A stretch of 63,356 nucleotides of DNA, the filler included, from Hausera hauseri (lineage: Eukaryota), in the NCBI GenBank assembly GCA_046269625.1. It is 13 parts of 13 records of this genome, joined end to end, with 100 filler letters (N's around TTAATTAATTAA, not from the genome) between each part and the next. Parts side by side here need not be neighbours in the genome. Positions count along the whole stretch, not along the records: positions 1 to 5,965 come from JBJURY010161754.1; 12 more parts are not named here. One strand, written 5' to 3'. The notes under the pieces are model-generated. The model was not told the origin of the DNA, did not search any database, and saw only the letters and a program-made list of their open reading frames with translations. Position numbers and translations under genes: made by a program. Positions 1-28,040 of this stretch are shown here, piece by piece (the stretch's first letter is position 1; each line of letters starts with the position of its first letter).

Positions 1-149
1 AATTATGTTCAATGTATACAACAGAACCGCTATATATATGTTATATATTGGGGTGGCCCTTATTCAACTCCCACTATATAACAATAATTACACTTGAAGT
101 TTTTAGTACCTTGGTGCAGGTAAGGTCTACCGTTATCGAATAGGCAGAA

Positions 150-774
150 TGTACCTTATGATTATTAGTTTAATCAGTAATGCGTGTACTCGCTTGCGGT
201 CCTGTGCAAAGAACGTTTATCAAATTCTCCTCTTAACTATATGAAGTGTAAGTACAGATTTTAAGCTTAGGGTAGTCAAATCGCTTTTAAGAAGCGAAGC
301 AAAACTATGAATAAATTTACTCAATAAAATTTATTAAACAACAATTACCAATCTTTCCAAATAATCACGGAAGCACAGTATCGAATGACTCTTTAATGTT
401 TCTACAGATTAATCCTTCTGATTTTATCAGCAAAACGGTCTCCCCAATGATTCTGTCGTCTCAAAACTTCTGTTTTACTCAGCTGTTCTCATCCTTTTAT
501 AATCTCGTCTTCGATAATTAATTTGTTTTTTTATTCCATTCAATTTTGTTATTCATAATACGGTTTTGCTTTTTATACATTATTTTTAATTATTATAAGC
601 TACAACCTACGATCAATTCTATTAACTCAATACGTTCAAATTTTTATTCAATAAATACAATATTCTATTCTGTACATACAACTAATTATGTACACGAATT
701 CATAAATACATGATACCTTTTATATTTATTTATGAGCTACGATATCTATCAGCTGTACTCTTAGCCATACTACA
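150..774 (-). repeat. 3' LTR of complex Ty3/gypsy element, copy A (left boundary approximate)
   Basis: On the minus strand the PPT AGGGAGGAGAGATGA is directly followed by TGTAG at 774. TATAAAAGGA lies at about 492-501 and AATAAA at about 330-335. Blocks are homologous to 23590-23720 and 23900-23911. A candidate TACA end lies at about 150. Confidence 0.7.
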
Positions 775-1140
775 TCATCTCTCCTCCCTGAACGGCACAT
801 TCTGATGTGCCAATTGCGTCAGAAGAGGTGACGCCTGTGCGTGGCAATCGTAATAAGTCTATACGTTGCCTTAGACTGGGTTCGGAGCTTGTACTTGCCT
901 GATTTCCTCGAGTACTTGTTTCTAATTCATAGCTGTAATTGGGTTTTATTCTTACTACTCTAGTATAGGTTCCATTGGAAAAATACTTCAAGTCTGTAGC
1001 TTCTGCTCTACAGACTGGACATGTAGTTTTGCCCTTATCTAATGTCCATTTTTCCAAGCAATCTCGACAATATTTATGTTGACAATCCGAATTATCCAAA
1101 ATCACAGCCTTGTTTGAGATTATCTTCGCACACTGGGAAT
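770..1140 (-). pseudogene. RING-HC (C3HC4) finger, C-terminal domain of the retroelement accessory ORF (frameshifted near 1100)
   Basis: (F)PVCEDNLKQ / VILDNSDCQHKYCRDCLEKWTLDKGKTTCPVCR gives the C-x-H-x2-C-x2-C...C-x2-C pattern. The stop codon is the TAG of the LTR start TGTAG. Confidence 0.8.
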
Positions 1141-1790
1141 TCTTTTTCCTCTTTTTCCCAATTTTCGTCGTCCAAATTGACTCTTATCGTAATCTCAATA
1201 GATTCTACTACCAATCCTTCTTCATCTTGATATAGATAGGCATATATTCTTTTTTGTTTCGGATTTATTGAACTCTTCTTGGGATGGCATCTCACGGGCA
1301 ATAGGATCCAATTGCTGATATCATCTTGATCTAAGTCGGGAATTTCACCAGTCGATCGGTATTTCTGATGTAGCTTCTTAAGTAATATCTTTACGGACTT
1401 GTCTACGGGAACTATGAGTTTACCATTTCTTTTTGATTGAAATATTGGGACAACGTATTTTCCTATCTTGGGATTCTCTCAGACATAAGTATTCTCTTAT
1501 AATTCCCTTGCGGGTATCAATTTGACGAAGAACATTGCTTCCTTAATTCTTTGTTGACTATAATACTCTGCAGTTACCAATATTCTCGGGTAATCCTTGG
1601 TGGTGGCGAAATGTACATTATCTGAGGAACCTTTCTTTCGTAATATGTTCACTTTCGTTATCTGTTCCTTTTGTTTACTTGATGGTCTCGTAGATTTCTC
1701 GGTTTCAGACGGCACTTGTGTTTTTGATGGTTTTTCTGTTTGTATTCTTGGGTCTTCTGTCTTCTTTAGTTTCGGGTCTTTATTATCTAA
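1092..1790 (-). pseudogene. Middle part of the accessory ORF (Lys/Ser/Thr-rich linker plus unknown domain), disrupted
   Basis: ORFs 1497..1715 and 1092..1301 are in the same frame, separated by two in-frame stops, and read on toward the RING motif. Confidence 0.55.
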
Positions 1791-3258
1791 TTTGTATCCT
1801 TCTTTTGGTCCTTTTTCTCCTTCTTTACTTTTTTCTTAAATAAATAATCGAAGAAGGAGGTTTTTCTTTTAGTTGTCTTCCCGATTTCGGTTTCTGAAGT
1901 TCTATCTTTTTCTTCTAGGTATTTTTTGGGGACCTCGGGTATCTTGAATATGTCACTCTTTCCAGTGGTTTTCGTAACTGATTTAACGCTATAACTTGTA
2001 CTTGGTTTTTCCTCTATTTGCTTTTTGCTATTCGATCTTCCGGAATTAATTTCTTGAATAGTCACTTGATAATTCCATTTTTGTGTGTTTTTGACATTTC
2101 TTGGGGGAGAATAGGGACGGAAATGTTTTCTGTATCGGCTATTTGATCCTTCTATTTTAGGAAATTTGCGTAGATTCTGGCCGGGATTACTTGGGATCCA
2201 TTTATGTTCCCATATTAATCCAGTATTTATGTCCATCAAGTATTGGGAACGTTGACTAGCAGTTAGTAGTCGACTTATTTTAATATGTTCTGCACTCATT
2301 GCTTCGATCAACAGCTTAAATCGGCCTTCCACGGTCGGGGGTAGATATCCTTTCCTTTCTTTTACCTTTATCTCCATTTGTTCTATCACTGTCGGTTGGC
2401 TTTCCACTTCTCTTATCCCGGCTATGTATGTAATGGGTATTTCTAAATTTTCTATAATCATTTCTACTTGGTAATCCACCATGATACAACCATACAGGAA
2501 ATATGTCACATCTTCTTGTAATAGCTTATTATCCTTTCCTAATATCAATTGTTCCCTTTTTAGTCCGATTACTTCCGCGTAAGTTTCCTTTACTTTTTTT
2601 CCCGGATTAATTATTTTTGCGTAGATTTCCATTCCGTTCGTTTCTCGTATCGATATTTCGATCGGAATATAGTTTCTCAGGTCCTCTTCTCCGTAGTTCA
2701 CTGCGACGATCCGGATGTTCCTTGCATCTGCTACCAATCTAAATGAATATAAGTGTACATCTTGTTTCTCTTCGGTGGGCCTTTGTCTAAATTCTAATGG
2801 TGGCAATGGAATGGTTGTTGTTTCTTCCTCGGTTATTTCAACCATTAGCTTCGCGGGTAAAGCAGCTATGCGAAATTCCAGCTCATAGTCGTGGTCGAGA
2901 AAATCTCTACTATTAAATACAAATGTGCTATATCGACTTTGTTTTCCTTGGAATGAGTCCCATTTTTGGTCTTTTAACCTGTAATAAATTACTCCGTCAG
3001 CTAAGTGTATGAATAATTTCTGTTCTTTGTCCGCTCTGTGCTAGGTGATCTGCCGTAAGGAGTATGTCTTTGCATTCTTATTTTCTCTCCATGCATATAA
3101 GTAGACAGCTCTAGCTTACCCAGGTTTGTCCTTGTAGTTCTGTGTTGATTTTTCTGTAAATACTTTTGAAATTTAGGATCAGGACGGTTACGTATTGTTG
3201 CGAAAATCAGTCGATACTAAGTCGGCTCATTTTCGTGTCGATCCGATTACTTGCTAAT
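1787..3258 (-). pseudogene. Accessory ORF with DEDD 3'-5' exonuclease-like (REX4/ISG20/REXO1) fold, copy A; open frame 1787..2845
   Basis: IVAVNYGEE..PIEISIRETNGMEIYAKIINPGKKVKETYAEVIGLKREQLILGK..LLQEDVTYFLYGCIMVDY follows the Rex4-type pattern VALDCE..VSIV..G..YDKYVKP...VTDY.T.VSGI..EDL..G....VQ.EV..LL.G.ILVGH. It is homologous to 62268..63335. Confidence 0.65.
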
Positions 3259-3356
3259 CTGAAGAAGAAAACATAAAGGTTAATCTTAAAACAAAGTATG
3301 GTCTTAAACCAAAACCAATTCTTTGTTTGATGACAGAATAATCTGATCTGTAATTG

Positions 3357-4780
3357 TCAGGTTATTTTATCATAGGGGTCTATAGGGTTTTCCCTCTCCC
3401 TTAATTCCCATTCTGTATTTTTAGGGCGTATACAATAATAATTTTTGGCAACTAACCGAACAATCGCTGTTAATAAAATGAGAAAAAATGTTGACGATAC
3501 AATAATGAATAGGATCGGTAATGTGGTTAACCCTAGTGGTACTTGTGTGGTAGTAGGAGTTGTGCTTTCATCTTCGATATTTTCATATACTGGTGATCCT
3601 GTGCGGATTTCGCCCAGGGTACGTATTGTAATTGTTTGGTTTTGCTAATTCTTTGCATGGTGTTCGGACTGTGGTTTTAGCAAATTACATTCCGTCTGAT
3701 AAGTATTTTTAAACAATGTTGCAATCTGATCATTGTATGTTGTTCGACAATTTATGTGTATATCATAATTTTGTTTTTCCTCCAAAAAGAACACAATTTT
3801 AATTCGATATGCCGAATATTTAACATGTATGCTTCCTAATTCTTTTTGAGATATCTTGCTCGATGTAACAGTTCGGTAGTAGGACTAACCTTAGTGGTTG
3901 ACTATTTGGTTGTGGTTTTCACTGAGATTTTCCAACTATTTTCTGGATAGTAAGTTTGTAATTGTATACTTGGTTTATTAGGTCACACCTCGTATAAATC
4001 AAATTTTATTTTGAACTCCTGGTTCACGGGTATTTTACAACATGGATGTTGCACACCTGCGCGAATAAAACAATACCCTATTTTCTGAGTCGGTCCCTCT
4101 GTTGCTTCGAAAGTAATACTAATTTTGCGACTGACAGTTAGCTTTGTCCGGACATCTACTTGGATGCATTTTTTTGCCTTGTTTACATATATTCTCCGGA
4201 TATTTTCGTATAATAATTTTATATCGGGGTCAGTGGATCGCAGCATTTTGTTAGGTTTTATTCCATGATGTCTGTTCCAAGCAGGGATGACTAATTGGAA
4301 CTGTGGCTTCGTCTCGATGTAAACTTCGGATGAGTCCGGTAGGTATAGGCGATAAGTGAGATTATAAGTGCGTCCGAAATCTATGTCGCAACACGGCGTA
4401 TAGTCTATAGGTTCAAAATCACAATTTGTAGCTTTTTGTGTTGTTACATCGTGTAAGACGATTTGAAATCTTTCGAAATCGTGGTGGGACCTCCAAGCCT
4501 TAAATCCGACACACACGGTGTCCGCCGAAAAATAATTAATTATCATTGATTGCAATGATTTAGTATCTTCTTGTCTTTGAATTTCTCTGACTGTTGGTTT
4601 CTTTTCCGTTTTAATAGTTTCCGATCTTGATCCACTCTTCCGAATTCCGTATACATCTCCTAGCGTAGATTCGTCGTACCACCATTAAGTTTGTGTTCTC
4701 GGAATAAAAGAAGCAATTAATGATAGAGCTAAAACGATATGAATGTATGATATTGGTCTAACAATTATTGAGTAAGTTTT
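3357..4780 (-). pseudogene. Env-position type I membrane protein (signal peptide, 2 Cys-rich domains, S/T linker, FN3, TM, YDKI tail), copy A, disrupted
   Basis: Hydrophobic IHIVLALSLIASF follows the integrase tail. ORF 3983..4555 has two C..C..CC units. TECNLLKPQS, the TM segment and the C-terminal DPYDKIT* match 61228..62169. Confidence 0.7.
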
Positions 4781-4789
4781 TATCTCGTG

Positions 4790-5965
4790 TTGGCGTAGAT
4801 TATAACGTTTATTGGGCCTTATCTCTGTCTTAACAACTCTTTGTACTGATACGACTTTTTCCTTTCCATTTTTGTTGATATATACTGTGGTTGGCGTAAC
4901 TCTGGTAACACTCGTACGGTCCTCTGCCTGTTCGAGTTAATTTTAATGAGGTGCCTTTCCTGGCTAGTGGGTAATGTACATAAACCCAATTTCCTTGTTC
5001 TAAATCATGCGGTTTCGCTTTCTTGTCATATTGCTTTTTAAACTGTTCTTGATATTCTTGGGATAATTCTTTGGCGATTTCCCAACATTTTCGCAATCGA
5101 GTTTGTAGCACTTCTGCAAAATTCTTTTCTAAATCTTCGGGATTGACTGTGTATGGCGTCATTCCTAAGTCTGTGGGCGGCACAGCTTTACGTCCATACA
5201 TCATGAAGAATGTGGTAAATATTGTCGCTGGATGTGGTGTGGTATTAACTGCAAATTGAGTTCCTTCTAGAAATTCATCTCAATCCTTTTGGTCCTTGGC
5301 TACTACTGTGGATAATATACGTATGACGGTTGCGTTCATTCGTTCGACCATTCCGTTACACTGAGGGTGATACGCGGTAGTTGTTAATCGTTCGATTTCG
5401 AATATCTTGCTGATTTTTTCGAATAATGCACTTGTGAAATTTCTTCCTCGATCTGTGAGTATCTGGTCTGGGGGTCCGTATCGGCAAATAATTCTTTTTA
5501 CTACGGCTTTTGCTAAGGTTTCTGCCTTTTGATCAATTAGCGATATCAACTCGACAAAATGATTTAATCGGTCGACACAAGTCAAGATATACTTATTGTT
5601 CTTGTGAGTCGTAGGAAGAGGGCCTACGATATCCATAGACATGGCTTGCACAGGTCTATCGGCACATTAATTGGTTTTAATTCGGCCATGTAGTTTTTCG
5701 TTTTCTTTTGATTAGTTGCACATACTTCACAGGCATTTACCCAATTTTTTACATCAGTATAGATACTAGAACAAAAGTTATTCTTTCTAATTCGTTATTC
5801 TAATATTCGTTATTCTTTCTAATGTTTTTATCCAGGACATGTGTCCGGCTAAGTACGAATCATGTTCCGACGTTAGCACTTCGGTTCGTAACCCTTTTGG
5901 AACAACCATCAATTTCCTTCCTTTTCGTTTGTAATATAAAATATCGCCATTGCTTTTGTCATTTA
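4790..5965 (-). mobile_element. Ty3/gypsy integrase, copy A, disrupted
   Basis: SMDIVGPLP, ILTDRGRNF and TTAYHPQCNGMVERMN form the DDE core; a GPY motif follows (RGPYE). Near-identical to 59937..60850. Confidence 0.92.
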
Positions 5966-6065: not shown

Positions 6066-9000
6066 GAAGGAGTGTTGCGCCAACCGAGTAGAACAAATGG
6101 CAGGATAGACGTCCAATTGCGATGATTGTCTGCTAGGATTTTGAAAGAAATTTTCATAGTTCAATGCGATCTTTCAAGGAGGCCATTTGCTTATGAGTGG
6201 TACGGTGTTGTATGGAAATGTGATATCCCCAAGCGTTTAACAAGCGATTTAAAAAGTTCCGATTCGAACTGCGAACTTTCGTCCGTTATAATGTGCCGTG
6301 GAGATCCAAAACGACTAATCCAGATTATAATGAAGGCATCTGCTACTGAATCAGTGTTTGTTGAACGGAGAGGAACGGCTTCAGGCCAGCGAAAAGCACG
6401 ATCCATAATAGTGAGAATATGTTGATACCCGTTATCGGAAGGTAGGGTCCAACGAGATCAAGATGGACGGTATAAAAACGTGATGTACATGGGAAATGGT
6501 AAAGCGGCAGTTTAAACTGTTTGTTGACTTTGTATTTTTGACAGGCGACGCATTCTTTAACCCAACCCTGTACATCTGTGCGCATTGATAGTCAAACTAC
6601 ATGATGTTGGAGCAAACGAAACGTGGCTTTCGAGCCTGGATGATGAAGTGAATGCGTGAGAAGAAAAGCTGGTTTCTGCAAAGGACCGAAAATGATTTTT
6701 TTGTTACCGGGGTTAGATGTGCCGTATGCAATGCCATCAATGATTTCGAAGGATTTGAAAGAGCTAAGAATATCGATAGCCGGTTGATTGAGCTTTAGAA
6801 TTTCGGTAGAAAATATTGCTTCGACAGTAATTGAGCCGATCGGCCGTGACAGGAAATCCGCGACCAAATTCTCCGTACATGAAATATACTTTATGACAAA
6901 ACTAAATGTAGATAGGTACGATATCTGTCGTTCCTGCCTCGGTGATGGCTGTTTTAGTGACATGATGTGCAGCAAAGGCTTGTGATCCGTTTGGATGATA
7001 AATGGGCGAGAGAGGAGGAGATACTTGAAATGTTTCACTGCCAGAACTATGGCTAGTAGCTCACGATCGAATGTAGAATATTGGCTTTTTTATTGTGTGA
7101 GTTTTCGAGAGTAAAATTCCAAAGGTTCGTCGACACCGTTGGAAATTTGGTGTAGTATTGCACCAGTAGCTGTGGAAAAAGCATCAGTGGTAAGTATTAG
7201 CTCCGCGTCGGGTTTTGGATAGGCCAGTATTTCGACGGTTTTTAAGACTTCACGTAAGTGATCGAATTTGGTAACTAAATCGGTTGTCCATTGGATTAGC
7301 TGTCTTTTCTTTCCAGATGAGAGGTGTGCGAAAGGTGCTGTAAGCTCAGAGCAATGCGGTATGTATTTATGGACAGAATTTAATGTGCCAAGAAAACTTC
7401 TCATATCTGTAGTGGTCGTTGGTAGTGTTACGTTTTCTAATTGCTGTAGTCGATCAGGTTGTGGAGAGTGGCCGTGAGGAGCGATAATGTGGCCTATGAA
7501 CTTGATACGTTTCTAAAAGAAGTTGCACTTGGAGAAATTAACTTGTAAGTTGCTATGATGTAGTCTGTGAAAAATAATTCAGATGTGTTCATGATGTTGT
7601 TTCACGGATTTGGAGGCAACTAATATGTCATCGACGTAGGGATGAGCAAAATCAAGGCCTGAGTGAACGGTGTCGATGTGGCGTTGAAAAGTTTGGGCTG
7701 CGTTACGTAAACCGAATGGCATAAACATGTATTCGTAGAGGCCAAATAGAGTGATGACAGCAGTCTTTGGAATGTCATCGGATGCAACGGGAATTTGATG
7801 GTAGGCTTTGTGCAGATATATTGTGGAATAGGTATTGGTGTTGTTAAGACTGTGCAGAATGTGTTTTATGAGCGGTAATGGGTAAGCATCCATAATGGTT
7901 AGATTGTTTGCTAGACGGTAATCGCCACATGGTCGAAAAGTACCGTCCTTTTTTGCTACTACATGTAATGGTGAAGCCCATAGTGCTTTGGACCTCCAAA
8001 TGATACCAGATTTTTCGAGTTCGTTAAACTCTAATTCCACGGCTTTTCATATACGAGGCAATAATGGTCTTACCTATTGTCTGATAGGTCTTTGGTGTTG
8101 GGTGACAATGTGGTGATAAGTTGTTGACAGGAGCTTAAAGTTAGAGTCCTTTTTGAGTATGCGAGAACAAGAAGAATTGATGTAGGATTTGAGATTGGAA
8201 TCTAGTGATAAAAATGATTGAGGCGTATTATTAGAGGAGGCGGTGACTGTGATTGGCAAAGAACGAACGACATTGCCGCCGTCAACATTCGGTTTAACCG
8301 ATTGTTTTAAAATCGACTTCGGTGTTTGAGGTGTAATTGAAAAAATAAATAAACTACTAGATGTATCGTTATCAACCAATAAGCAATTTGCCAAATTCAC
8401 GTGTGAGTTCGCAGACGATTGGCCTGTTGCGCTGTCTGTTAGACGGTTGCTAACGTTCACGACGGAGTCTCTACGTAGCAAACAACCATACATGCAGTCA
8501 ACTAGCAAGTCGTGTGCAGCCAAAAAATCTGAGCCGATTATTGGCGATTTAATATTGGCCACGTAGAATTTCCAGACAAACATGCCTGGTAAGTTCGAAA
8601 ATGTAAAAACCAGTTCCGTAATACCCGCGATTCGCAAAGGTTGACCACTGGCGGTGAAAAGCGGAGGGGAAGAAACTGTTGTTAATGTGGAGACGAAAGT
8701 CAAAGGGAGGAGTGAAAAGGTAGCTCCTGAGTCGATGAGAAAATCAATACGTGGAGCGTTGTTACAGAACAGTGCAGCTTTTAACAGAAAAACTGCGGAG
8801 GCGTTGTTAAGACGGCTAGAAGATTGAGCAGTATTGCCTATGCCAGAATGTGCCGTAACATCTGGCGGCATTTTTAGTTCTTTGAAGATTGTGGAGGGAA
8901 AGAAGATGACAGGTAGGCAGAAGGAGGAGGAAAAGAAAATGAAGGTAAACTGAAGTTCTTTTTGTAATGTTTACATCCCGGAACACACGATCTGGCTAGA

Positions 9001-10300
9001 GAGTGGAATTTTGTGTGGTAAATACAGATATGGCTGTCCACCGCAAAACGCTCGTCGTAATATATACAACCCAAAAGACATTTTTCTGCATTACTACGAA
9101 ATTTCTCGTGATAAAAACAAATCATTCGTCCGCCAGATTTGAAACGAAATAAGTGCCTGGAGAGGCTACGCTCGCGCGATGCACGAATCTCGCCTTGCCG
9201 ATACATAGACAGATTACTTAGTTGAGCCGTGATGGCGAAAATTGAATGCTGTAGAGTATCGTATTGTTTCTGCATTAATTGTAGTTGCTGTGCGAAAACA
9301 ATCGTGTCTGCGTGAAATGAGGTATGCGTGGTTGCTGTAGCTACGGGTTGTGAGTTGTTGGTCTGCAAGATTACGAAACTTTTATCAGCCAATAGGGAAA
9401 GTTTTTCGATCCCCGTTGAGTCGTCAACGACAGTAAGGATAGCTCTGATGGAAGTGGGTAAGGAGGACAGGAAATAACGACAAATTAAGTCCGCATTATT
9501 GGTGGGGGTAATGCCAAGAGCACTTAGGTGTGAAATAGAGGTCTGCAGAAAGTCAGAAGGTTTTTGATTGCTTATAGCATGTTCGTTAAAGTACTTCTGT
9601 ATTATATTATCAATCGATGGATCGGTAATATGAAGAACAGACTCATCAAGCATGTCATATGGTGTTGGCGAAGTAAGGATATCAGTAAGATTACTGATTT
9701 GATGTTTGATGTTAGCTGGGAGAAGAAGTAACAAGCTGTTGGCGCGCAAGAAAAAATCGGTAATATGATTGGCTTTTAGCCATTGTAAATGAAATTTTAT
9801 CCAAATGTGGCTTGAATTAGTTTTGTCAAGTAAGAAATCTGTGCAAGGAAGATTGAGAGAGGCAGATTGTGCAGAGTCAGCAGGACGACGACCGGATCTT
9901 GTTTTGGAGGAACTTTCAGTAGAAGAATCAGGATCCGAACCACCTCGGAGGTAAAAGTGAAGGGTGAGATGAATGATCAGAGAAACGAAGAAAGTCAGTT
10001 AGACGGATGTAGCACAGAACCATGATGCGACAAATAAAAATCGAAAGTGTGTAGGAAAGAGGATAGAGACATATAGAGGGTGTAAGCAATGTCCGTGTTA
10101 CTAGTGAGTATGGTAGAAGTATGTGTGTTATTTTTGAAAACAAAAAAGGAAAAGGGTTGAAAAGTAATGCCAGAGGCATGTTGTGGCGCACGAATTACAG
10201 ACGCGTCCAGGTTTCCGACCAGATGATGTTCGGGCTGCATAGCCGAAAGAGTAGTCGCCACAACCGATTTCTGATGGTCAGTGTTCATCGCAGACTGTTC
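6066..10300 (-). mobile_element. CsRn1/Kabuki-like Ty3/gypsy retrotransposon (LTR end, gag, PR, RT, RNase H, IN), decayed
   Basis: gag 8874..~9900 has CxxH..C..C knuckles. Motifs: PR FLIDSGATFS, RT MPFGLRNAAQTFQR and YVDDIL, RNase H TTDA and TDHKPL, IN VHLDLVGP. The LTR end ..GCGCCACA is at 10182. Confidence 0.9.
8874..9900 (-). CDS. Gag of CsRn1-like element with two CHCC knuckles
   Basis: CFYHEKFRSNAEKCLLGC and CIYHTKFHSLARSCVPGC; homologous to 58247..58804. Confidence 0.8.
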
Positions 10301-11718
10301 GGCTGCTCTGTATGTGTCAATAAATTTAGGGAGTTGTGGATGTTTAATTAACCACACCTTATATTTCGAATAACCGTTAAAAGAATCGGACGGTACGGTT
10401 ACAAATAAATAACAATTTGTGTCATTGCGTTTTCCAGTTTGGTGGTGATCGCATTCTATTGGAAAATTATTCTGTTTTGCCACCTTATCGAAGCGATCAA
10501 TAGAGATGGTATTTCTTGTTGCTGTATTGGGTGGTACTTCGTAATCGTTATCTACATCGTTCTGATTAACACACTCATGAAAAATATTATCCCTGTTTTT
10601 ATTAGATATTTGAAGCAGACTACTATAAGATTCATAAATATACATATTACGGAAGGAATTAATATTCATCGTTATTTTGTGATTACTATTATATTTCGGA
10701 TAGAGCTTCGGCACTTCTTCAGAATCTCATATAATGATTTTTTAATTGTTAGTCTTGCTAAAAATACAGTCAGCGGCTATTGTATGATCAAATTTAGTGA
10801 TGCATGTGCAACCGGTTTATCGGTTTTATTGTCTAGTGATGGCGGCTTGATATACACGGTTGTATTTGGTGTGGAGACCGGATTAAGATACACGATCCTA
10901 TCTAAAACGAGTGCGTTTGTGGTAGTCGTTACCACCATTATTGTTACCTTGGTTTTCATGACAATTTTGTGTGAAATGGGACATAAAAGCGATGAAACAG
11001 TTCAATAAAACGATAGGTATAAAATCATTATTTAAGTCATCAAAAAATCATTAATGTGAAAATTATCTTCATATTGCTTATGATAGATTTCCTGAAAAAA
11101 TTCACACTGGCTTCGCGACATATTTGAAGTGTCAAAAGTTCGGTAATTCGTCGAATAATTCAATGTCATGGGAGTATGCAATGATGGGTTGCTATAAGTA
11201 ATAGGTTAATTGATGTGTAACGATCGACTGATAGACTCCGAATGGTTTGGATATGGGAAATTTTGCTTTGTCTCAAATATGACACTGCACAGTTGAAAAG
11301 TTTCCATATTCTGAATGATTTTTACCAATATTCCGCAGAATTTTTGGAAGTTTTGGTTGGCGACTATATATTGAAAACTGGAGCCTTTCTCGCTGTATAT
11401 TCCATAAATATAAATTCAATGCCTCTGTTTTAGTAATATTTTAGATCAGAAATCAAAAATTTCAGAGCTTTCAAAAATCACTTATTTATAAAATTCACAA
11501 AGTTTAGTTTGAACGTAATTTCCAAACAAAGAATAAAGGCGATTTCTAAAAAATTATGTATATTTTTAAAATGTTATAAACACTGACAAAATAATTTTGC
11601 ATATTTAAACAACCAATANNNNNNNNNNNNNNNNNNNNNNNNNNNNNNNNNNNNNNNNNNNNTTAATTAATTAANNNNNNNNNNNNNNNNNNNNNNNNNN
11701 NNNNNNNNNNNNNNNNNN

Positions 11719-13352
11719 GTTTGGATTACCTCACCACATCATTTCAGACCAAGGCCCACAGTTCGAATTCAACCTGTTTAAAGCTCTTGTTAATCGATGG
11801 GAAATTAACCGCATTTACACGTCACCATATCATCCCCAATCGAATGGCCTTCTTGAACACTTTTACCGAACGATTAAAACGTCTCAAAATCCTTGCTGAG
11901 TCTAATTGCAGTTGGACTACATTCCATCCGTACGTTCTTCTTGGTTGGCGGAATACACCATCTAATTCTACAGGCTGTTCACCTGCAGAAGTATTGTTTG
12001 GGACTTCTATCAGATCATTATTCGAGCTGGCTGAGCTGGACAATATTCCTACAGACAAAACCATACGAGCGGCCCAGAGACACTTCATTGAGTTCAGCAA
12101 AGACTCATTTTGTAGATTATTACACGGAGATAAACCTTACATACCAGACGATTTATATACTGCCAAGTTCGTATGGCTAAAGAATCAGACGCCGTGTGGT
12201 TTTCAACCTCAGTATGCTAGCCATTATAAAGTAATTCGTTTACACTCTCACAACATCATTATTCTCAAGAACGACAAAGAAGTAACAGTCAACATCAATA
12301 ACGCTAAGCCGGCTTTCTTCATTGCCGATACATCTCCCATCGAAACCACTTCTCCGCCAACATCCTTACGCGACGCGCAGCAATCCAACAATTCACCTTC
12401 CATCTCTGCTCAATTTTTCAACCCACTTTCCCCTACGTTTTCTCCCAAGATTTCTACTTCAATTTTTTTCTGGCAGGTCATCTTCTTTTCCCCATCCGAT
12501 TTTGCACTTTCAAGCCTTTCCACACTTCTTTCATCCCCTGATAGCAACCTGTTTTCTCCTCTTACAATACTTCGTTCATCAAACACCACTTCGACTTCAC
12601 CAATCTCTCTATCTTTTTGCTCTCTTCCGTTTTGTCCCTCTTCGCCATCTTTTCTCTCTCTTTCTTTCTCGTTCCACACCTTCCTCATATTCGGCGCTCG
12701 CTTCCTCCCTCTCGCCTCACACAACGTTTTTTAGTCCTTTCATCTCCGCTTCGCAACTTCCTTCTCTTTCTACTCCTATCCCTATCTCTCTTCCTCTCTC
12801 TACTACTACCTTGGCTTCGTCCTCTACTTCTACCCTTTCACCTAAGACAATTTTAATTTCTACGCCAAATTTCGTCTCTCCTCTTTTATCCGGCACTACA
12901 CCTCTTTTAAGTCCTTTGTCTTCTAACACTCTCGAACGCCTTCAACCGTCCATCTTCAACAATCTCTCTTCCTCCTTCACCTTCTTCTCCTCATTCTAAC
13001 ACGTCTTCGCACGACACAGCACTCACAACAAAATCGGACAATTTTTTCCCAAACTTCAACCTCTGCATGCAAACACACAGCATAAAGACAAAACACGCAA
13101 AGTCACATTTAGCAAGTATAGCAGAGAAAAATCAGTAGAAGGCACCCAACGTCTTGTTCACAATAAGACCAGCTGACACAGACACTTTTTCGTCTGACAA
13201 CTTTTGTTTCTGTCTTTTACTCTATAGTTTTCGCTTTGCCACGGGAGGGGGTGATGTGGTGCCCACAAGGGCGGTGCTCTTTGTCCTATTTGGTCGGGCA
13301 CAGCCGGGCGTCCGTTGCCGCCGTGTTGGATCCATAGTTTGGTCCGATCTTC
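11719..13352 (+). mobile_element. CsRn1-like element 3' end: integrase C-half, pyrimidine-rich (Ser/Pro/Thr) tail, PPT and truncated LTR (LTR starts 13255)
   Basis: PYVLLGWRNTPSNSTGCSPAEVLFG; the PPT GGGAGGGGGTGA is followed by TGTGGTGCCCACA; homologous to 15842-17100. Confidence 0.85.
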
Positions 13353-13359
13353 CAACATT

Positions 13360-15000
13360 TTGCTCCAAAAATCAAAATCAAAAAGATGTTCCCGATTGCC
13401 ATCCATTATCGATTACGTCCACACGACGACCAGCAAGTCAAGAAATGATACTTCGCGCTCTCTCCCGTATTGCGGCACGATAAACGCTCATATTCACGAA
13501 CCAAACAAAATACCAATGTTAACAATTTTTCAGTTCTAAATACACCAAATGATGGATTTGTTGACCCTTATGTGTGCCATTTGTTGTGGCGTTTTTGTGT
13601 GTTTGGAGAAAATTGTTTTAATAATTACATACCGACAGATATTTCGATTTGACAGATATTTTTAAATATGGCGAAATTTATCAGAAATGATAATTATGAG
13701 CGCACTGAAATTTCCATTAGAAAAACAAATGTGGATCGAAATCAGGATTCTAGTGGAAATGTTAAATTTTGAAATTCAAAAAATTTTATTCAAGAAATCG
13801 GTTCAAATTTATGGGCCAACGTGTTGAATTCTATCCCGAGTGGATTAGACAGGAATTGCAGAAGTCAGTAACGCGACCCAATAATCATATGGAACTTTTG
13901 TTACAAACGTACAATTACCGATCAACATCGGAATCTGCAATTGTGTTTGTTAAATTGATGGCCATAAGTTTGGATATGTTTAAAACAAATTGTCGGAAAA
14001 TTCCTGATCAATTCAGCGGCCAGCCTTGTAACGTTGTCGTGAAGGCCATTACCAATTTGCTGCAGACAATTCCTAGATTCTCGTTAAATGAACTGGATCT
14101 CAGCAATAACCGACTGTTGCATGTTTTCCATCTGGAAGTCCTGTTCCATTCTATTCCTATTCGATCACTGATCATTTCTGGCAACAGTTTGATTTACAAG
14201 TCATTTTTACGGGTGCGCCAACAGGCTTCGTTTTTCGTTAATTTGACTGTTCGTACAGGCAGTGAACTCACTGGTCAGAAACTGAAATATTTCAAACAGT
14301 TCGACAACGATTTGCTAGAAGTCTGCCCTTCGTTACAGTCGGTTAATGAGCCGTTAGTCGTAGTTGACGGATTCGGTCGATCCAGTCAGCTGCCTGTGAC
14401 TATCCGTTCGGTCGGGGAAGTTGAAGAACTGGTAATGAATTTTTTAGAGAACGTGCGATGAAAATTGAAACTGATAACTATGGATTATTAAATTATTATT
14501 CGTCGGATAGTGTACTGACAAGCAGCGCATATTATCATGATATTGTTCAGAACCAACGACGACTCGGTGAAGAATATTAACGTAATTTCTGCAATTTGCC
14601 TCGACTAAAAGATGATCTGAGACGAGCACAACTTATTAAAAGGCGATCATCACAAATTCTTGGATTTTATTCGGAAATCCCTCGTTTGAAACATATCGGA
14701 AATTCTTTGGTTCTGGACATAATCGTCAATAATAATCAGAGTAAAATATTTTCCATTATCGGAGTATTCGTTGAGGCGGTGAAAATTATGAATAAAAATC
14801 GAGAGAGTGATAATGACTTTCATCACCTTTTCAATATGCGTTTGTTTTCGAGATCGTTTATCGTCGTTCCACCGGGGAAAATTCTTCAGGAAAATTGGAT
14901 GATAACAAATCCAACAGATGGTTTATTTCGGGTAAAATTATTTTCAATGTTTTGGTGAATGATGTGGTTTCTATGGCAATTTATTGCAGAATTATTTGTG
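13360..15000 (+). pseudogene. NXF1/TAP-family nuclear RNA export factor-like gene (LRR plus NTF2-like domains), intron-containing, probably degraded
   Basis: LRR LNELDLSNNRL. NTF2-like segments VEELVMNFLEN, RAQLIKR..ILGFYSEIPRLKHIGNSLVLDI..FSIIGVFVE and RLFSRSFIVVPP..WMITN..LFR. A short GT..AG intron follows 14930. Confidence 0.7.
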
Positions 15001-15589
15001 AACATTTGTAATTTCTTGTTTGCATGAAGTCGTTTTGCATTCGGAAAGTTTCAATAAGGATGTGTGTACACACAAAAAGGGTATGAACATTACGATATTA
15101 TGCATGCATTCTAGAATGGCAGGAAATAATATGTGGATTTTTGTAGTGCTTATACTAACTCCTCCTGGCACTTGATCACTTTCCTCCTCTACATTCGAAC
15201 GAGCCATTATGTTGTTTTCTGTTATATTTCTAATGTTAAATACTATTTCCAAGTTGTCATTGTGCCTTCATAGTTTACAAAAAGTCGGTTTTAGTTACTT
15301 TTCGCACGTTTATAAAAGGGAACTTTGTACGGGCGTATCTAACACTAAATACCAAATATGTTTTTGACATTTTAAAAATGGGTTAAAAATAAAGTAAAAG
15401 ACGAATTTAAAGAAAACTACATCACAAAAACTACATCAAAATTCAAAACCAAACAAAAGATTCTCAAATGTTGTCACTCGCATGATACACGAATGCCGCG
15501 TTATATATTAAATTGATTTTCATTTACAAAGTGTATTTATAGGGGTGCACATTATTTGAGAGCGCGTTATAAATGGGACTTTAGCGTAA

Positions 15590-15741
15590 AATACTAAAAG
15601 TAGTTTCAACGTCACACATAAACGTAAAGTCTGTGAAGCATTTTAAGTACTGCTCCTATTGCATCAAACGATGCATCTGTATCCAAAATAAAATCCTTCG
15701 TAGGATCCATGAAGGTTAATATTGGCGCCTCACATAGCTTC
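15590..15741 (-). mobile_element. Ty3/gypsy RT-RNase H fragment (third family)
   Basis: Minus strand reads APILTFMDPTKDFILDTDASFDAIGAVL; near-identical DNA at 37186-37240. Confidence 0.7.
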
Positions 15742-15841
15742 NNNNNNNNNNNNNNNNNNNNNNNNNNNNNNNNNNNNNNNNNNNNTTAATTAATTAANNN
15801 NNNNNNNNNNNNNNNNNNNNNNNNNNNNNNNNNNNNNNNNN

Positions 15842-18800
15842 ATCGAGCCCGACTATGAATCCGACAAGGCGGCAATGGACGTCCGGCCGCGTCCGACCAA
15901 ATAGGCCAAAGGGCACTGACCGCCGCGGGCACCACATCACCTCCCGTGGCAAAGTGAAATCTATAAAGAACAACACAGACGGAAAGAAAAAAATCGTTAA
16001 ACGAAAAGTGCCTGTGTCAATTGGTCTTAGTGTGAACAAGACGTTGGGTGCCTTCTACTGATTTTCCCTGCTATACTTGATAAATGTGACTCTGCGTGTT
16101 TTGTCTGGATGCGGTGTGTTTGCTTGCAGAGGTTGAAGTTGAGGAAAAAATTGTCAGATTTTGTTGTATGTGTTGTGTCGTGCAAAGCCAAGTCAGAAGG
16201 AATAGAAAAAGATTGTGAAGGACGAAGAGAGATTGTTGGAGACGGATGGCTAAAGGTATTTAAAAGAGTGTTAGAAGACGAAGGAGTGACAAAAGGTGAA
16301 GTGATGGATGAAGGAGGAGAGAGGAAAATTGAAGTAGAAGTTGGAATTGTATTAGGTGAAAGAGTAGAAGTAGAAAATTAGGCAGAGGGAGTGGTACAGA
16401 AAGTAAGAGAAATAGGAATAGAAGTAGAAGGTGTGGAAAATGATGAAGCAGAATTAGGAGCAAAAGGAGGAGGTGAAACTGGTGAAGCAACAGATAAAGG
16501 AACAGCAGGAAGTGTAGGAGTGAGAAAAGGGGTTGCCTTGTCGATTGGTAAAGTATCGTCGACAAAGAAAGCGGGTTTTAGGTTGGTAACATGTACCGTA
16601 AGTTCTTTGCCGTTTTTAGAGATAATAGCATTATGCAAATGCAACTGTATAAGTTTATAGGGCCCCAGATACCACGGCTGAAAACCGCACGGTGTTTGAT
16701 TTTTTAGCCATACGAATTTTGCTGAGTAAATGTGTTTTTTCTTTGTGAAGTAATATGCAGAACGAATCTTTGCTGACCGTAACGAAGTGATTTTGCGCCT
16801 CCCTTATCGTTTTATCTGTAGGAGTGTCGTCTAGGACATCTAGTTTGAACAATGATCGTACAAGAGCTCGGAATAAGGCTTCAGTAGGTGAGCATCCTGT
16901 AGAATTAGACGGCATGTTCCACCAGCCAAGCAGAACAAACGGAAGAAGATTCGTCCAACTAGTGTTGGACTCTGTAATGATTCTTATTGACGTTTTCAAT
17001 GTTTGGTGGAAGCGTTGTAGGATGCCATTCGATTGGAGATAGTAAGGTGTAGTATGTATGTGACGGATCCCCAATCGGTTAACAAGAGATTTGAACAGGT
17101 TAGATTCAAACTGTGGACCCTGGTCCGTGATGATGAAGCAAGGTGATTCAAACCTGCTAATCCATGTACGAATGAAAACGTCAGCTATGGTATCGGTTTT
17201 CGTGCTCCTCAGAGGGATAGCTTTTGGCCATCGCGAGGAACGCTCCATCATGGTGAGAATGAATTGATGACCGTTACCTAGAGGAAGAGGGCCAACGATG
17301 TCGATATGCACGGACTCGAAACGCGATGTGCAGGTAAAGTGGAACAGTGGTGGCTTTAAATGCTTCGTTGTTTTGTATTTTTGGCAAGCCACACATTTCT
17401 TAACCCATGCCTGCACATCAGAACGCATTGACGGCCAAATTACTTGTCAATGGAGTAAACGAAAAATGGCTTTAGCACTAGGGTGGTGTAACGAATGTAT
17501 GCTATTAAATGCTTGTTTTTGCAATGATGGTGCGAGAATTATTATGGAATAACCTGGTTTGAAGGTGTCTAAAGCCACGTTGTCAACGACTTTGCAATAG
17601 TTGAAAGAATTAAGCATGTCTTAAGGTGGCCAGTTCTGTTGAATTTGAGCTTGCGTAAAAATCGGTGAAAAATTAATCGAACTAACCGACCTAGATAAAA
17701 AATCGGCAATTAAATTATTAACCCCATTATTATGTTTTATTTCGAAGTTAAATGTCGACAAGTATGATATCTGTCGTTCTTGGCGTGTGGAAGGATGTTT
17801 TATAGCCATGATGTTAAGTAAGGTTTTGTGATCGGATTATATAGTAAAATGCCTAGCGACAAGTATGTGGGAGAAATGCTTTAAAGCAAGAACGATGGTC
17901 AATAACTCTCGATCGAACGTTGAATATCTGGTTTCAGGGGATGTTAGCTTGCGGGAGAAAAATCCTTGCGGTTTATTTTCTCCTTTGTAGATCTGGTGGA
18001 GTACAGCATTTACCGCAGTGGTTGAAGCGTCTGTAGTAAGGATGAGTTCTGCATCAGGTTTGGAGAAAGCGAGAATGTCGACGGTCTTAATTTCTTCGCG
18101 TAACTTATCAAATTTGTCTACCAACTCAGGTGTCCACTGGATTGGCTGATGTTTTTGCAACCGCTTAAGTGTGCAAATGGTGCTGTCAATTCGGAGGAAT
18201 ATGGTACATATTTAAGTACAAAGTGTAGTGTACCAAGGAAGCTGCGCATTTCGGTGGTCGTACGTAGTAACTGGATAGTTTTAAGGGGTTCAACTCGGTC
18301 TGGTTGAGGAGAGTGGTCGTCTGGTGAAATAATGTGGCCTAAAAAGTTTATGCATCTTTTGAAAAAATGGCATTTGTCGAAACTGACTTGGAAATTATGG
18401 TGGTGAATGCGTTAGAATATTGCGCGAAGATGTTCCTCGTGTTGTTTGACCAAAAATGAAATTATCAGAATACCATCAATGTAAGGGTGCGCAAACGGAA
18501 AATCTGAGAGAATTGAGTCAACATGTCACTGAAATGTCTGTGCGGCATTTCTCAAACCGAAAGGCATAAACATGGTACTCGTAGAGGCCAAAAGGAGTAG
18601 TGGCAGCAGTTTTTTCTGTCTTCGGGTGCCACAGGTATTTGGTGGTATGCTTTAGCCAAATCGATGGTCGAATAAATGTTAGTTGAATTAAGGAGATGCA
18701 GGATGTCCTTGATGAGTGGCAAGGGGTACGCATCCATGACTATCAAGTTGTTTAACTGGCGGTAGTCACCGCATGGTCTAAAAGTAGCGTCCTTTTTTGT

Positions 18801-20153
18801 ACGACGTGCAAAGATGACGACCAAGGAGATTTTGAACAGCGTACAATTCCGGAGCGTTCTAGTTCAAAAAATTCGGCTTCTACAGCCTGTCTACGATGAG
18901 GTGACAGTAGTCGTACCTTTTGGCGTATTGGTCGTTGATGCTGTGTAGTTATGTGATGCACAGTGCTGTTTGTAAGGGTAAACGAATGATCTTTTTTAAG
19001 TACGCGTGGACATGATGTAGTAACGAATTGCTCTAAAGTTATATGCAATTGTGATAGATTCGGTGGTTATGGTGAAGCAGGTTGAGAATTGGCGTGTGCG
19101 ATTTGTGAATTGTTTTGTGATGTGTAGTCAAGTGGTATTTGGAGTAAGATGGTCGGATGGCAGGACCGCAATTAATGACAATGATCCTCGATTGAATATC
19201 AATATAATTATTTAAAAATTTACGAATTGAATTATTGTTATGGAAATTCGAAGTATTTATTGATTTTCCCAAAATTCACCTCCATATCTCGATCGACTGC
19301 ACGGTAGTCGAAATGCTATTGTCATGCTCAGTAATGCTGCCAGTGATGCCGCTCCTCAGACATCGTTGACACAGTCAACCAATAAATTATAATGTGATAG
19401 AAAATCGAACCCTAGAATTGCCGTCTGGACGTTAGCAACTGTGAACGTCCAGTGAAAAGGTGAAGGAAATTTTGGTAAGATGAAAGATAATTTAGCCATG
19501 CCAGAAATGTGCAGCGGTTGACATGCAGCGGTGTATAAGGGCTTAATTCTGAATAGTGAATTTTGCACAGGAAAGGTTTGTGGTAATAGAGAAATTGCTG
19601 TACCTCTATCGATGAGGAAATCAACGGATTGCGTTGTAGGAACGTGATTGCAGCCTTTAGAGTAAAGACAGTAAAAGAAGCTTGTCGGTATTCAGAAAGT
19701 GAAGCAGTGCCTTTGCCAGAGTTTGGCGTGACTTCCGGCGGCAAACTTAGTTTTTTTGGAAAGGTGAACTAGGACGACTATTAGAAGAAAAGGAAGCACG
19801 TCTGTTGTTCGTATCTGGTTTCAAAGTTCAGCCTGGAATGCATTTACGAGCTTTGTATTTAAACTTTGCGTGGTAGATGCAAATAACGATGTCTGAAGAA
19901 AACTTTTATTATAAAATTTGCACCCTAGGCACCATTTCTTTGCACTTTTATTGAATCTGCTGTGATAGTAGCAGATAGACGACCGTGTAGGCGATGGTTA
20001 ACGGTTTCCCAACGCAGAATGGGTGCGGTCAGCAACAAAATCCCTTCGCCGGGACAGGGAAAGTTCGTTTAATCTGTTGTTTATATTGTTAATTGTTGCT
20101 TGTAGTGCTGTATTTTCGGCACGTAACTGATTTAGTTGTTGCTCTATTGATGT
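15842..20153 (-). mobile_element. CsRn1-like Ty3/gypsy element (gag C-end to 3' LTR start at 15936), decayed
   Basis: PR, RT (SKSPWSSSLHVV, FRPCGDYRQLN), RNase H (TTDASTT, YSTFDRELL), IN (VHIDIVGPLP, ITDQGPQFES), PPT then TGTGGTGCCC. AAAAAAACTAA at the gag end. Confidence 0.9.
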
Positions 20154-20253: not shown

Positions 20254-21220
20254 TGTACTGCTGGATCAAGTATTTTATAGGTATACTTTAATTCTTTTTT
20301 AGGCCTTTTCTCTGAAATGGCGGAATTTGTGACAGTACTCACTTGAGTAATTGGTTTTATTGTTGCTTCAAGTGAAAATTTCCATCTGATCTTCCGGACA
20401 GTATCTTCCAGAGAAAATATTCGATTCGTTAGGTCGGAGTTCATAAATGTCGAAATATATTTTGTACTTATAATCTACCAGTATTTTACAACATGGATTC
20501 GATATTGTGGACCCAATGCCACAATATTCTGGTAGGGGAGCTAATTCATATAATTTATTAAATCGAACGGAAGTTGCTTTGTCGTCCGTCAACAACCTTA
20601 TGGTTTTTATCTGGATACATTTCTTTTTCTTATTCTTAGAAATTCCGATTATGTTCTCGTCTAACATTCGTTTTTGTGGATTGGTTGATTGGATTATTTC
20701 ATCAAGTTTTACTTGGAAACGTCGATCCATCGAAAGTGTGATTAATTGAGATTGTGGATCCACTTCGGCGTAGACATCATTTAAATCTGGCAAATACAAA
20801 TGGTAAGTGCGAATATATGAATCTCCATAGTTTACGTCACAGCATTGTGTATAATCGCCCGGTTCGAAATTACAATTGATCTTTGCTTTCCTTGTTATAT
20901 CATGTAGTATAACCTGAAACTTCTGAAATCACGATTTGTTTTGTTTGTTCTAAATCCAACACATTTTCAGATGTAAAGTAATAGGCCTTCATCGTTTGTA
21001 ACAACTTGGTGTCCTCTTGTTTCATGATTTATTCGGCAGTTAATTTCTTTCCCTTTTCTACCGTTTTGTTTTAGTCCACTTATACGAATTCCATATACAT
21101 CTAGCATAGTTTTGTGACCCACCATAGGACCCTAATTTTTGCTAAATATGCAGCAATTAGTGATTGTACTAAAACTGTGTGTACGTAGGATGAGTCGAGC
21201 AATTATTGAAGGTTTTGTTT
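20254..21220 (-). pseudogene. Env-position Cys-rich/FN3 membrane protein, copy B (truncated by gap)
   Basis: NCNFEPGDYTQCCDVNYGDSY..YHLYLPD and KKCIQIKT..EYCGIG..NPCCKILVDYKYKIYFDIYE. Confidence 0.7.
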
Positions 21221-21359
21221 TTCTGCTATTTTGATTTTGACGCAGGTTGTAGCGTTTGTTTGGTCTTATTTGCGTCTTAACCACTCTTTTAACCTTCAGA
21301 ACTTTACCATTTTTGTTAATATAAGCTGTAATTGTTGTTGTTCTAGTGATCTCGATGAG

Positions 21360-22255
21360 GTATCCTGGAATTTATCATCCGTTATTCCTTTTACGAGATT
21401 GGTTCCTGTAAATTTGTTAGGGGCGGCAGTTATACCTCCATTCGATAGGCTTACCCAATTGGTTTCAATACATCTGAACGTAGATTATCCTAAGCTAGCT
21501 TTACATTCTTTTAAGATTGTTGGTTGAGTTGCCTTAACTAACAAGACTCTAATAAGTGGCATAGCTAGTAGAGGAGTATCCTGGTACAAAACCAGGAGTT
21601 CTTGTACACAACGTTTTTCCTCGACATTAATTGGTACATCTCGCCCCACATTCATAGGTTAACAAGACTTCGCCTGTGACTCAGCCGAAAATTTCTCTCA
21701 TTGGAATTATTGTCATGCTAATTCAGGGTTGGCGTAAATTAGAGCTAATTTTGTTCTCATAATTTCCATATTTAATTTGCAGTCGTTCGTTATCATGTGA
21801 TACAGTTCGGTTATTCCGTCTCGTTTTTTGTAGTAGAAATAATCGTCTCTATTTTTCAAGTAATCTTCGATTTGTATATCCTGCGTTTCCTATTTATATG
21901 TCTGTCCATTTATTTCGGTTTCCGCTACGAAAAATGCCTCGTAATTTGTGGCATACATTACTACTTCGCAACGCGAGAGCATTTCTTTATAAATTTTAAT
22001 TCAGGTCAGTGATTAGTACAGTTGGTGTAGAGTGCTCGGCAACGTCTTCTCGTGTCCTGGCGCTACTATCTACTTTATTCACATCATTTACCAGTAGTTT
22101 CATTGACCTTCAGCTCCTTAATTTTGATGAAATTACAATCATTTCCCGAGGGTGGTTCCCATATTATGATTGAACTTCTAAAAGCACAAGTTCCATCTTG
22201 TAAATGACATTTTTGGTTTTCAATATATAGTTTGGTGATGCCGTCTTCGTTTATA
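21360..22255 (-). pseudogene. Chuvirus-type (class III-like) viral glycoprotein remnant
   Basis: Manual minus-strand translation through stops and frameshifts: CHLQDGTCAFRSSIIIWEPPSGNDC; MYATNYEAFFV; YLKNRDDYFYY..ITELY..NDCKLN..LALIYANPELA; FG*VTGEVLLTYEC; RCVQELLVLYQD..MPLIRVL..EC..F..WV. Motif order matches Jingchuvirales-like G proteins. Confidence 0.65.
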
Positions 22256-22259
22256 GGTG

Positions 22260-23158: not shown

Positions 23159-23514
23159 TGTATTAATTTCGTTACCTAAGTCTTTTATTATTTTTACGAA
23201 CTTTATTTTTCATATGAGTAATTTTAAATTTATTAGTTTGCTCGATAGCAGTTAAATTTAAGTTAGGTAAATTTACTCTAGTCTCAGAAAGTTAACGTTT
23301 ATCTGGAGTTTTATTACGTCTATAAATATTTCTGCGCTTTTGGCATACAAGTAAATTTCCTTAGCCATTTAGATTAAGGGTTTCGTTTGATTTAGACCTA
23401 TCAATATTCGTTCTTTGTTTTTAACCTTTAATTAATTCTTGTTCACTTATACCAAAGATTTTGTTAGCGAATCTTAATTAATTTAGTTAATGTAAGAGGC
23501 ACTGATCGCCGGTA

Positions 23515-25600: not shown

Positions 25601-25949
25601 GCATGAAAAAATAACTGACAAAAATTTTATTACAGAATTAAGGAGTACTGGAATAGAATAAAGTTGTAATACTGCGTAATGCAAGTCAGTAGCGTACCCA
25701 AATACCCAACATACTGATGTATTTAACTTTCCACCGGCCTCCCATACTTTATGTGTCACGTGTTACGGTGCCCATGACATCACATATGTTAAGCCTAGTG
25801 TTCTTGTGACGTAGTCAGTTTCTAAGTTGCTAGCTTTGTCATAACGGAAAACACAGGCACATGTTGGATTCCTACATGTTTGAGTTCCTAAAGGCATCTT
25901 CTTTATATTTGTTCTTCAATATGGTATATTGTATACTCAATAAGTTATT

Positions 25950-28030: not shown

Positions 28031-28040
28031 AGGAGAAAGA

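Follow-up and report, generated by a model that had tools for sequence, protein, structure and literature searches.

We analysed a 63,356-nucleotide window from Hausera hauseri (assembly GCA_046269625.1), which consists of short contigs joined in a row, animal-like in content. Three of these contigs, A (1-5965, minus strand), B (20254-24326, minus strand) and L (59047-63356, plus strand), hold broken remains of a Ty3/gypsy retrotransposon with long terminal repeats (LTRs), in which two further coding regions follow the integrase: an open reading frame for a predicted membrane protein (ORF3) and a second one for a predicted nuclease-like fold joined to a RING finger (ORF4). The three contigs are mutually homologous, as the original prediction for this window had proposed. 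A and L shared three blastn blocks at 68-80% nucleotide identity, and A and B a weak match (65% over 356 nt). By tblastn, A and L were connected across integrase, ORF3 and ORF4, and B was connected to both through the integrase tail, a signal peptide and Cys-containing domains; the LTR alignment given below agrees. Stops and frameshifts are present in all three, which are decayed copies of a single Ty3/gypsy lineage. In a public run (X1) that is possibly related to the source sample, 10,367 contigs aligned to L and covered 30 of 30 bins, 8,766 of them being less than 95% alike; this contig number is not a copy number, and the alignments show that many divergent copies exist.

LTRs, pol and a fusion-protein remnant

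The 3' LTR of copy A extends at least over 221-777 (minus) and may reach about position 39. Its stretch 754-221 aligned with the 5' end of B (24150-23592) at 72% over 500 gappy columns, as expected of LTRs. The alignment scored 125; base shuffling (100 rounds) reached at most 77, hexamer-block shuffling (200 rounds) at most 66, and other contigs of the window at most 56.5. The 5' LTR of B accordingly spans 23592-24172 (minus), its 3' end not being fixed. A polypurine tract (PPT), read directly at 778-789 (minus), lies immediately upstream of the LTR-like stretch of A, on its inner side. These terminal repeats were seen between copies and not inside one: both ends lie together on no contig, the alignment of the distal LTR ends did not rise above shuffles (41/500), and termini, primer-binding site and target-site duplication are not fixed. 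For Troyka, CG termini have been described (PMC12440569).

Pfam matched, in order along L, RT_RNaseH_2 (E 2.8e-23), Integrase_H2C2 (E 1.4e-15) and rve (E 1.4e-15), that is, RNase H followed by an integrase with its zinc-binding region and DDE core, which is the gypsy order (59047-60850, plus, broken). Copy A begins within the integrase (4790-5963, minus, broken; rve E 1e-15), which comprises the zinc-binding region, the core and the C-terminal tail. The integrase core is 89% identical in amino acids between A and L, with a ratio of nonsynonymous to synonymous change (pN/pS) of 0.09; all such ratios compare A with L unless stated, at a synonymous distance that is near-saturated. No protease and no reverse transcriptase polymerase domain was found in contigs A, B and L, and an integrase scan of viral contigs found no related locus. 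Our provisional assignment of the element to gypsy, not BEL, draws on this Pfam set and on an integrase motif that we take to be gypsy-type rather than BEL.

Copy B retains the region upstream of pol. Behind its LTR sits a broken gag-like frame (22400-23158, minus) with a weak Retrotrans_gag match (E 0.067), and directly after gag follows the decayed remnant of a chuvirus/gB-type fusion glycoprotein (21389-22278, minus). With X placed at stops, the profile PF24664 (Monjiviricetes_fusion) matched 21389-22000 at E 3.2e-7 and 29.1 bits against a cut-off of 27, over profile positions 268-445 of 653. A five-residue motif of this remnant occurs twice in the ENV alignment file belonging to PMC13524379, both times in Schmidtea rows, which hints that the host is a flatworm. 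The copy then jumps to the integrase tail with a signal-like segment (21130-21353, minus; tblastn, 37/55 residues identical to A), with a deletion on either side of env. On the simplest reading of this order, B would be a doubly deleted gag-env-pol copy. Because a gB-type fusion remnant follows gag in B, the backbone of the element is probably the known GAG-ENV-POL errantivirus layout, which has been described with gB-type ENV in Nematoda, Bryozoa and Platyhelminthes (PMC13524379).

The order given in the original prediction contains no fusogenic env; judging by the remnant in B, the element probably had one between gag and pol. A version of that layout can still be formulated, in which the family of A and L consists of gag, pol and the cassette with no fusogen, ORF3 is the sole surface protein, and B is a chimera that picked up a foreign env piece. 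The env piece is indeed confined to B, the most divergent copy, where it is deleted on both sides and preceded by the weakly supported gag; A and L start within pol, so their upstream content is not visible and there is room for a chimera. B nevertheless has its LTR, integrase tail, signal segment and Cys repeats in common with A, and its order of gag, env and integrase tail is what two deletions would leave of the GAG-ENV-POL layout as set out in PMC13524379. We consider the fusogen-free layout improbable. Three observations still count against the composite that we prefer: the whole order is present on no single contig, the env-bearing copy may have arisen by recombination, and no ORF4 was seen in B. 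Of the predicted order LTR-gag-pol-ORF3-ORF4-PPT-LTR, the LTR, RNase H-integrase, ORF3, ORF4 and PPT were recovered; gag is followed by the fusion remnant in B, and the order as a whole is still a composite.

ORF3 and ORF4, the accessory cassette

In L, the integrase tail runs through a hydrophobic segment into ORF3 in one frame with no Met (signal-like segment and ORF3 to a TGA stop, 60858-62169, plus, with one frameshift in the first Cys repeat). In A, the integrase tail and the signal-peptide-like internal segment (4712-4768, minus; hydropathy 2.0) likewise share one frame. Because the integrase tail reads into ORF3 with no intervening Met, ORF3 is likely part of the pol polyprotein, freed at the internal signal, and not a gene separate from pol as had been assumed. 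Hydropathy gave 3.1 (L) and 2.8 (A) for the transmembrane (TM) segment and 1.7-2.0 for the signal-like segment, confirming the prediction of a TM and a signal-like segment; ORF3 reads as a type I membrane protein.

ORF3 is made up of two Cys-containing repeats (3986-4534 in A, minus), a conserved membrane-proximal beta domain (3591-3842, minus; 73% to L), and, at 3360-3644 (minus), a Thr-rich stalk followed by a TM helix (about 3459-3515) and some 35 residues of cytoplasmic tail. B keeps the Cys repeats (20371-20960, minus; 43% amino acid identity to A, pN/pS 0.46 for this pair) and ends before the proximal domain and TM. The predicted duplication of a Cys domain holds as an internal repeat, with modest support: the first repeat of A against the second of A and against the second of L was matched in 1/1000 and 0/1000 shuffles, and the other four Cys pairs in 25-368/1000. 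Divergence grows outward from the membrane: pN/pS is 0.18 in the proximal domain and reaches 0.77 in the Cys repeats, while stalk, TM and tail together give 0.46. In the hypervariable second repeat, A and L share 24/87 residues, and they share more with the more distant B (34/88 and 35/90); the integrase tail gives 57/74 between A and L against 37/55 and 32/55 with B. An exposed domain that is swapped, or one that changes rapidly, would give this pattern, and three copies cannot discriminate between the two.

The fibronectin type III (FN3) identity predicted for part of ORF3 is unproven. Pfam fn3 reached E 0.2 on L, Atlas scored the Cys repeats at 0.80-0.82 for fn3/Ig, and profile searches of PDB with the FN3-like piece and with ORF3 gave chance matches only. 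The FN3 label of the proximal domain, and a possible Ig/FN3-like nature of the repeats, are therefore leads only, a weakness of any reading that gives ORF3 such a fold. An ORF3 scan of metagenome contigs found no related locus.

ORF4 could be studied through a natural relative. A profile search over 1.84 billion representative proteins returned 7, among them P0001, a protein of 870 residues (E 1.2e-91) on one ENA contig. The frame of P0001 is uninterrupted between N domain and RING, and all the pieces of A line up along it in the same order. The fusion of N domain and RING is therefore natural. The structural model of P0001 superimposed on human ISG20 over residues 243-417 (Z 18.6, rmsd 2.5, 158 residues aligned; Foldseek E 8.5e-8), and a nine-sequence profile that included A and L matched ISG20L2 in PDB at E 7.9e-16, whereas a PDB search with a two-sequence ORF4 profile was blank. 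The ExoI residues Asp and Glu read Ala and Asn in A, L, P0001 and P0002, and are retained in P0003, P0004, P0008 and P0009. The ExoII and ExoIII columns are non-acidic where covered, the ExoIII alignment being less certain, and the catalytic His is replaced too. A, L, P0001 and P0002, with the catalytic loss in common, form one group (support 99/99), and the loss therefore predates the decay of these copies. Modelling thus confirmed the DEDD-like pseudo-nuclease of the original prediction, as a predicted ISG20/REX4-like DnaQ fold lacking the DEDDh catalytic residues (2190-2745 in A, minus; pN/pS 0.21 and 0.33). A point against it is that the alignment behind the model included active relatives. 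Branches in the DEDD tree are long, and the origin of the dead domain cannot be read from it. P0003, P0004, P0008 and P0009 keep the DEDDh residues, and P0003 and P0008 also have the N domain, making them candidates for an active source. A Maelstrom origin of the dead domain found no support, the best matches being ISG20-type; an arenavirus nucleoprotein match (Atlas 0.82) was taken as reflecting the shared DEDDh fold only.

The remainder of ORF4 is less uniform. Its N-terminal beta domain, placed at 2880-3215 in A (minus, broken), was modelled with confidence in P0001 (residues 56-202) and is possibly cupin-like, with Foldseek cupin matches at E 8e-4 to 2e-3 reported with no ranges. The DEDDh fold is followed by a Lys/Arg-rich linker, predicted to be disordered (1650-2190 in A, minus), and by an unnamed domain of about 140 residues before the RING (1107-1650, minus, broken; 36% to P0001 514-757) that has no notable Pfam match and a predicted local distance difference test (pLDDT) score below 50; P0001 416-743 as a whole stays below 50 apart from isolated residues. 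The predicted RING-HC finger is borne out by P0001, where zf-C3HC4 scored above its cut-off and all eight zinc ligands of a full C3HC4 are present from residue 747. In A, the RING and C-terminal tail (773-1140, minus; zf-C3HC4 E 6.9e-7, 46% to P0001 750-870) are frameshifted and the first ligand is not Cys. Copy L holds the post-stop block, a variable linker, the N domain and most of the DEDD fold (62172-63356, plus; 39% to P0001 5-354), out of frame with ORF3 and cut by the contig end. ORF4 scans of viral contigs and of metagenome contigs found no related locus.

The accessory cassette lies between integrase and PPT/LTR, as had been predicted, and the ratios for A against L given above show purifying selection on it. 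Neutral evolution of the accessory frames, named in the original prediction as a reason to reject it, can be dismissed on this basis. The selection bears equally on a further explanation, that the cassette is captured host DNA, passively carried or kept for the host, with no role in the element. The DEDD fold and the RING are of cellular origin, and N+DEDD relatives occur elsewhere, including in this window (26914-27537). Set against these are the purifying selection between element copies, the fixed place between integrase and PPT, the fusion to pol and the many divergent X1 copies, and we regard passive capture as very improbable. The summed X1 depth was lower over ORF4 than over ORF3; it cannot rank genes and was left unused.

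The ORF3/ORF4 junction

In copy A, ORF3 ends with a TGA at 3357-3359 (minus), at the same place as in L (62167-62169). The stop is followed by 36 codons in frame with ORF3 (3249-3356, minus), which start with CAA-TTA and whose Phe-rich end also reads as a splice acceptor. Over the 32 codons of this block that align between A and L, pN/pS is 0.09 [0.02-0.24] and 10 of the 13 differences fall in third positions (p 0.0016), so the stretch after the stop evolves like protein. In L this block is in frame with ORF4. The stop context in A is UGA-CAA-UUA; of the 6858 stop triplets of the window, 15 have the motif CARYYA behind them. SIRE1, in which a stop separates pol and env, uses the CAR-YYA motif. 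In tobacco mosaic virus, CAR-YYA is a stand-alone readthrough signal (PMC2194720). Among 247 aligned contigs, no variant of the stop is listed and most have C right after it, like A. The linker that leads to the N domain keeps its frame at each of four lengths (10, 34, 36 and 42 codons). Of the 5 listed joints, 4 change the length by a multiple of three, in two length classes. Because the frame is kept at four lengths, an intron across the variable linker is disfavoured.

From these features, we slightly favour readthrough of the ORF3 stop, alone or together with splicing, as the route to ORF4. Splicing as the sole route appears less probable, though a serious contender. The original prediction had placed a splice acceptor between the two frames; the letters allow it, and it is rated below readthrough since the stretch evolves as protein.

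Several observations speak against readthrough. L is out of frame at the stop. The letters of the stop can also be read as a branch point plus acceptor, another strong acceptor lies where the block ends, and a Met is present in all four linkers, so that splicing accounts for part of the data. X1 variants in the block are synonymous in just 6/19 cases (4/5 within the central 18 codons). An 18-pair hairpin is predicted around the ORF3 stop in A (3330-3373) and L (62153-62195), with no compensatory changes between them, and may explain some of the conservation. The N-terminus of P0001 matches the block of L (3/2000 shuffles) and not that of A (844/2000). AlphaFold places a helix at this N-terminus; if it crosses the membrane, the readthrough product would place ORF4 on the wrong side, and the hydropathy of the post-stop block, 1.3, raises the same question of topology.

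These points feed a distinct functional reading, in which ORF4 is made solely from a spliced message and has no link to ORF3. The protein would be soluble and likely nuclear, and would either regulate the element's own RNA, by exporting or shielding unspliced genomes in the manner of CERV, or eliminate a silencing factor in the nucleus. The pyrimidine tract and CAG at the block end in A and L, the second possible acceptor right behind the stop, the in-frame Met in all four linkers, the Lys/Arg-rich linker, the loss of frame at the stop in L and the precedent of CERV as described (PMC10309623) all lend it weight. An acceptor at the block end leaves the synonymous bias of the preceding codons unexplained, however; the upstream acceptor would explain the bias, but has no pyrimidine tract, and the frame shared with ORF3 would then be chance. 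We judge this spliced, soluble ORF4 rather unlikely. As a separate observation, a splice-donor-like hexamer lies at 62271-62276 in L, four bases after the acceptor-like site at the end of the block, with a variant at 3249-3254 in A; P0001 and P0002 have matching residues at this position.

Possible role and relation to known systems

Taken together, we give an even chance to the reading that these dead Ty3/gypsy copies, likely of the layout LTR-gag-env-pol, carried a selected cassette of a second surface protein and a ubiquitin ligase behind a leaky stop. The anatomy, the fold, the loss of catalytic residues, the selection and the stop context are established from sequence and model; processing, readthrough, RNA binding, ligase activity and target are inferred in the mechanism that follows. 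ORF3 would be cleaved from the polyprotein at the internal signal segment and sit in the membrane in type I orientation; its rapidly diverging outer repeats could serve in attachment or as a decoy alongside the gB fusogen. A minority of ribosomes would pass UGA-CAA-UUA and lengthen the cytoplasmic tail of ORF3 into ORF4, and a spliced soluble form might be made too. The dead ISG20-like domain of ORF4 would bind to RNA, or to a host protein that is itself bound to RNA, and the RING would ubiquitinate that target, removing a host restriction or RNA-surveillance factor. As the original prediction suggested, such a cassette may act against host silencing or immunity. The piRNA pathway may be absent in parasitic flatworms; if the host is a parasitic flatworm lacking it, the ORF4 target is therefore not necessarily a Piwi factor.

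The most detailed version of this mechanism is also speculative, and we hold it to be doubtful. It envisages a retrovirus-like invertebrate element with two surface proteins, a gB fusogen encoded ahead of pol and a separate, fast-evolving Ig/FN3-like attachment or decoy protein joined to the end of integrase, and programmed readthrough that lengthens the cytoplasmic tail of the latter into a membrane-tethered pseudo-ISG20/RING ligase. A complex-retrovirus strategy would then have arisen independently in Ty3/gypsy, in which an E3 ligase finds its target through an inactivated homolog of an antiviral-type nuclease.

LTR elements of invertebrates are usually regarded as gag-pol elements that have one env at most, and surveys search for these frames only. 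Judged from their sequence, the broken copies suggest an infectious element tampering with its host. If true, one lineage would possess an additional surface protein that is apparently under diversifying pressure (28% identity in an outer repeat compared with 89% in the integrase core), along with a RING ligase of its own that is directed to its target by a dead nuclease domain. The target of that ligase would name a host restriction factor in an animal group that has received little study, probably the flatworms. P0001, as an intact natural protein, allows testing with no reconstruction, and readthrough can be tested directly at the stop junction.

The window also holds other elements and genes. 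Contig 24427-28534 (region 24900-27540) carries the second N+DEDD gene (26914-27537, plus), which matches P0007 at E 5.4e-17. It stands back to back with decayed minus-strand frames with superfamily-3-helicase-like motifs that resemble those of a CRESS-virus Rep; Pfam, PDB and viral-contig searches with these frames were blank. Such an arrangement would suggest that unrelated mobile elements draw on a common pool of DEDD genes. Another gypsy family, unrelated to the first, occupies 6066-20153, 45293-47400 and 58109-58804, with nucleotide matches of 65-86% between contigs. Decayed frames at 42003-44899, blank in Pfam at E 0.01, resemble a Polinton-type protein-primed family B DNA polymerase. 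Host-like genes at 39174-39959, 48443-49916 and 56874-58070 include a NOT2/3/5 C-terminal domain (E 1.1e-25), an ankyrin protein and, next to a gag-like ORF, an intron-free, decayed-looking armadillo/importin-alpha-like frame; they may be retrocopies.

The original prediction knew of no described family with this layout. For the cassette this stands, as no description was found in a literature search outside of which lay most subscription papers and Repbase, Dfam and GyDB; for the backbone and for each kind of cargo there are precedents, and it appears to be their combination that has not been described. Closest in backbone are the GAG-ENV-POL errantiviruses, which like copy B place a gB/chuvirus-type env between gag and a Ty3/gypsy pol (PMC13524379). 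The available text of that study describes no cassette behind the integrase, and its main text does not use the terms exonuclease, ring, accessory or readthrough; such cargo was not sought there and may be present in its elements without having been noticed.

Burro/GYPSM1 elements of planarians, with internal regions of up to 25 kb, are alike in having env in frame between gag and pol, a polyprotein design and cargo related to ubiquitination or host control (PMC6431247). Their cargo is MATH, BIR, BCL2-like, ankyrin, SUMO-like and AIR1 domains, in a polyprotein of about 4,900 residues or an upstream ORF, and the portions of that paper at hand describe no DEDD pseudo-nuclease-RING and no Ig/FN3-like membrane protein behind the integrase (PMC6431247). 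Pfam scans of A, B, L and P0001 found no BIR, MATH, BCL2-like or ankyrin domain, the region between gag and env being deleted in B.

Cer1 of C. elegans, a gypsy-type element, encodes a regulatory accessory protein of its own, CERV, which provides the model for the spliced alternative; the available account does not link a DEDD fold or RING to CERV (PMC10309623). Tobacco mosaic virus shares with copy A the arrangement of an in-frame stop, CAA-UUA and a continuing coding frame (PMC2194720); the stop here is UGA, follows the cytoplasmic tail of a membrane protein and would lead into the pseudo-nuclease-RING. The DEDDy ORF3 of the bdelloid LTR elements Juno and Vesta and of Terminons provides the precedent for an accessory gene with a DEDD fold placed 3' of pol, and seems to come from a gene pool that mobile elements share (PMC5408684). 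The bdelloid DEDDy proteins are RNase D-like with intact catalytic residues, whereas ORF4 is ISG20/REX4-like (best matches DEDDh), has lost its catalytic residues, combines this fold with an N domain and a RING, and follows a membrane protein. Among cellular proteins, ISG20, ISG20L2 and REX4 (PDB 1wlj, 7yw5) have the same fold as the ORF4 model, with Z scores of 18.6 and 17.9 at 13-16% identity, and differ from it in the catalytic acidic residues and His, all of which are replaced in ORF4.

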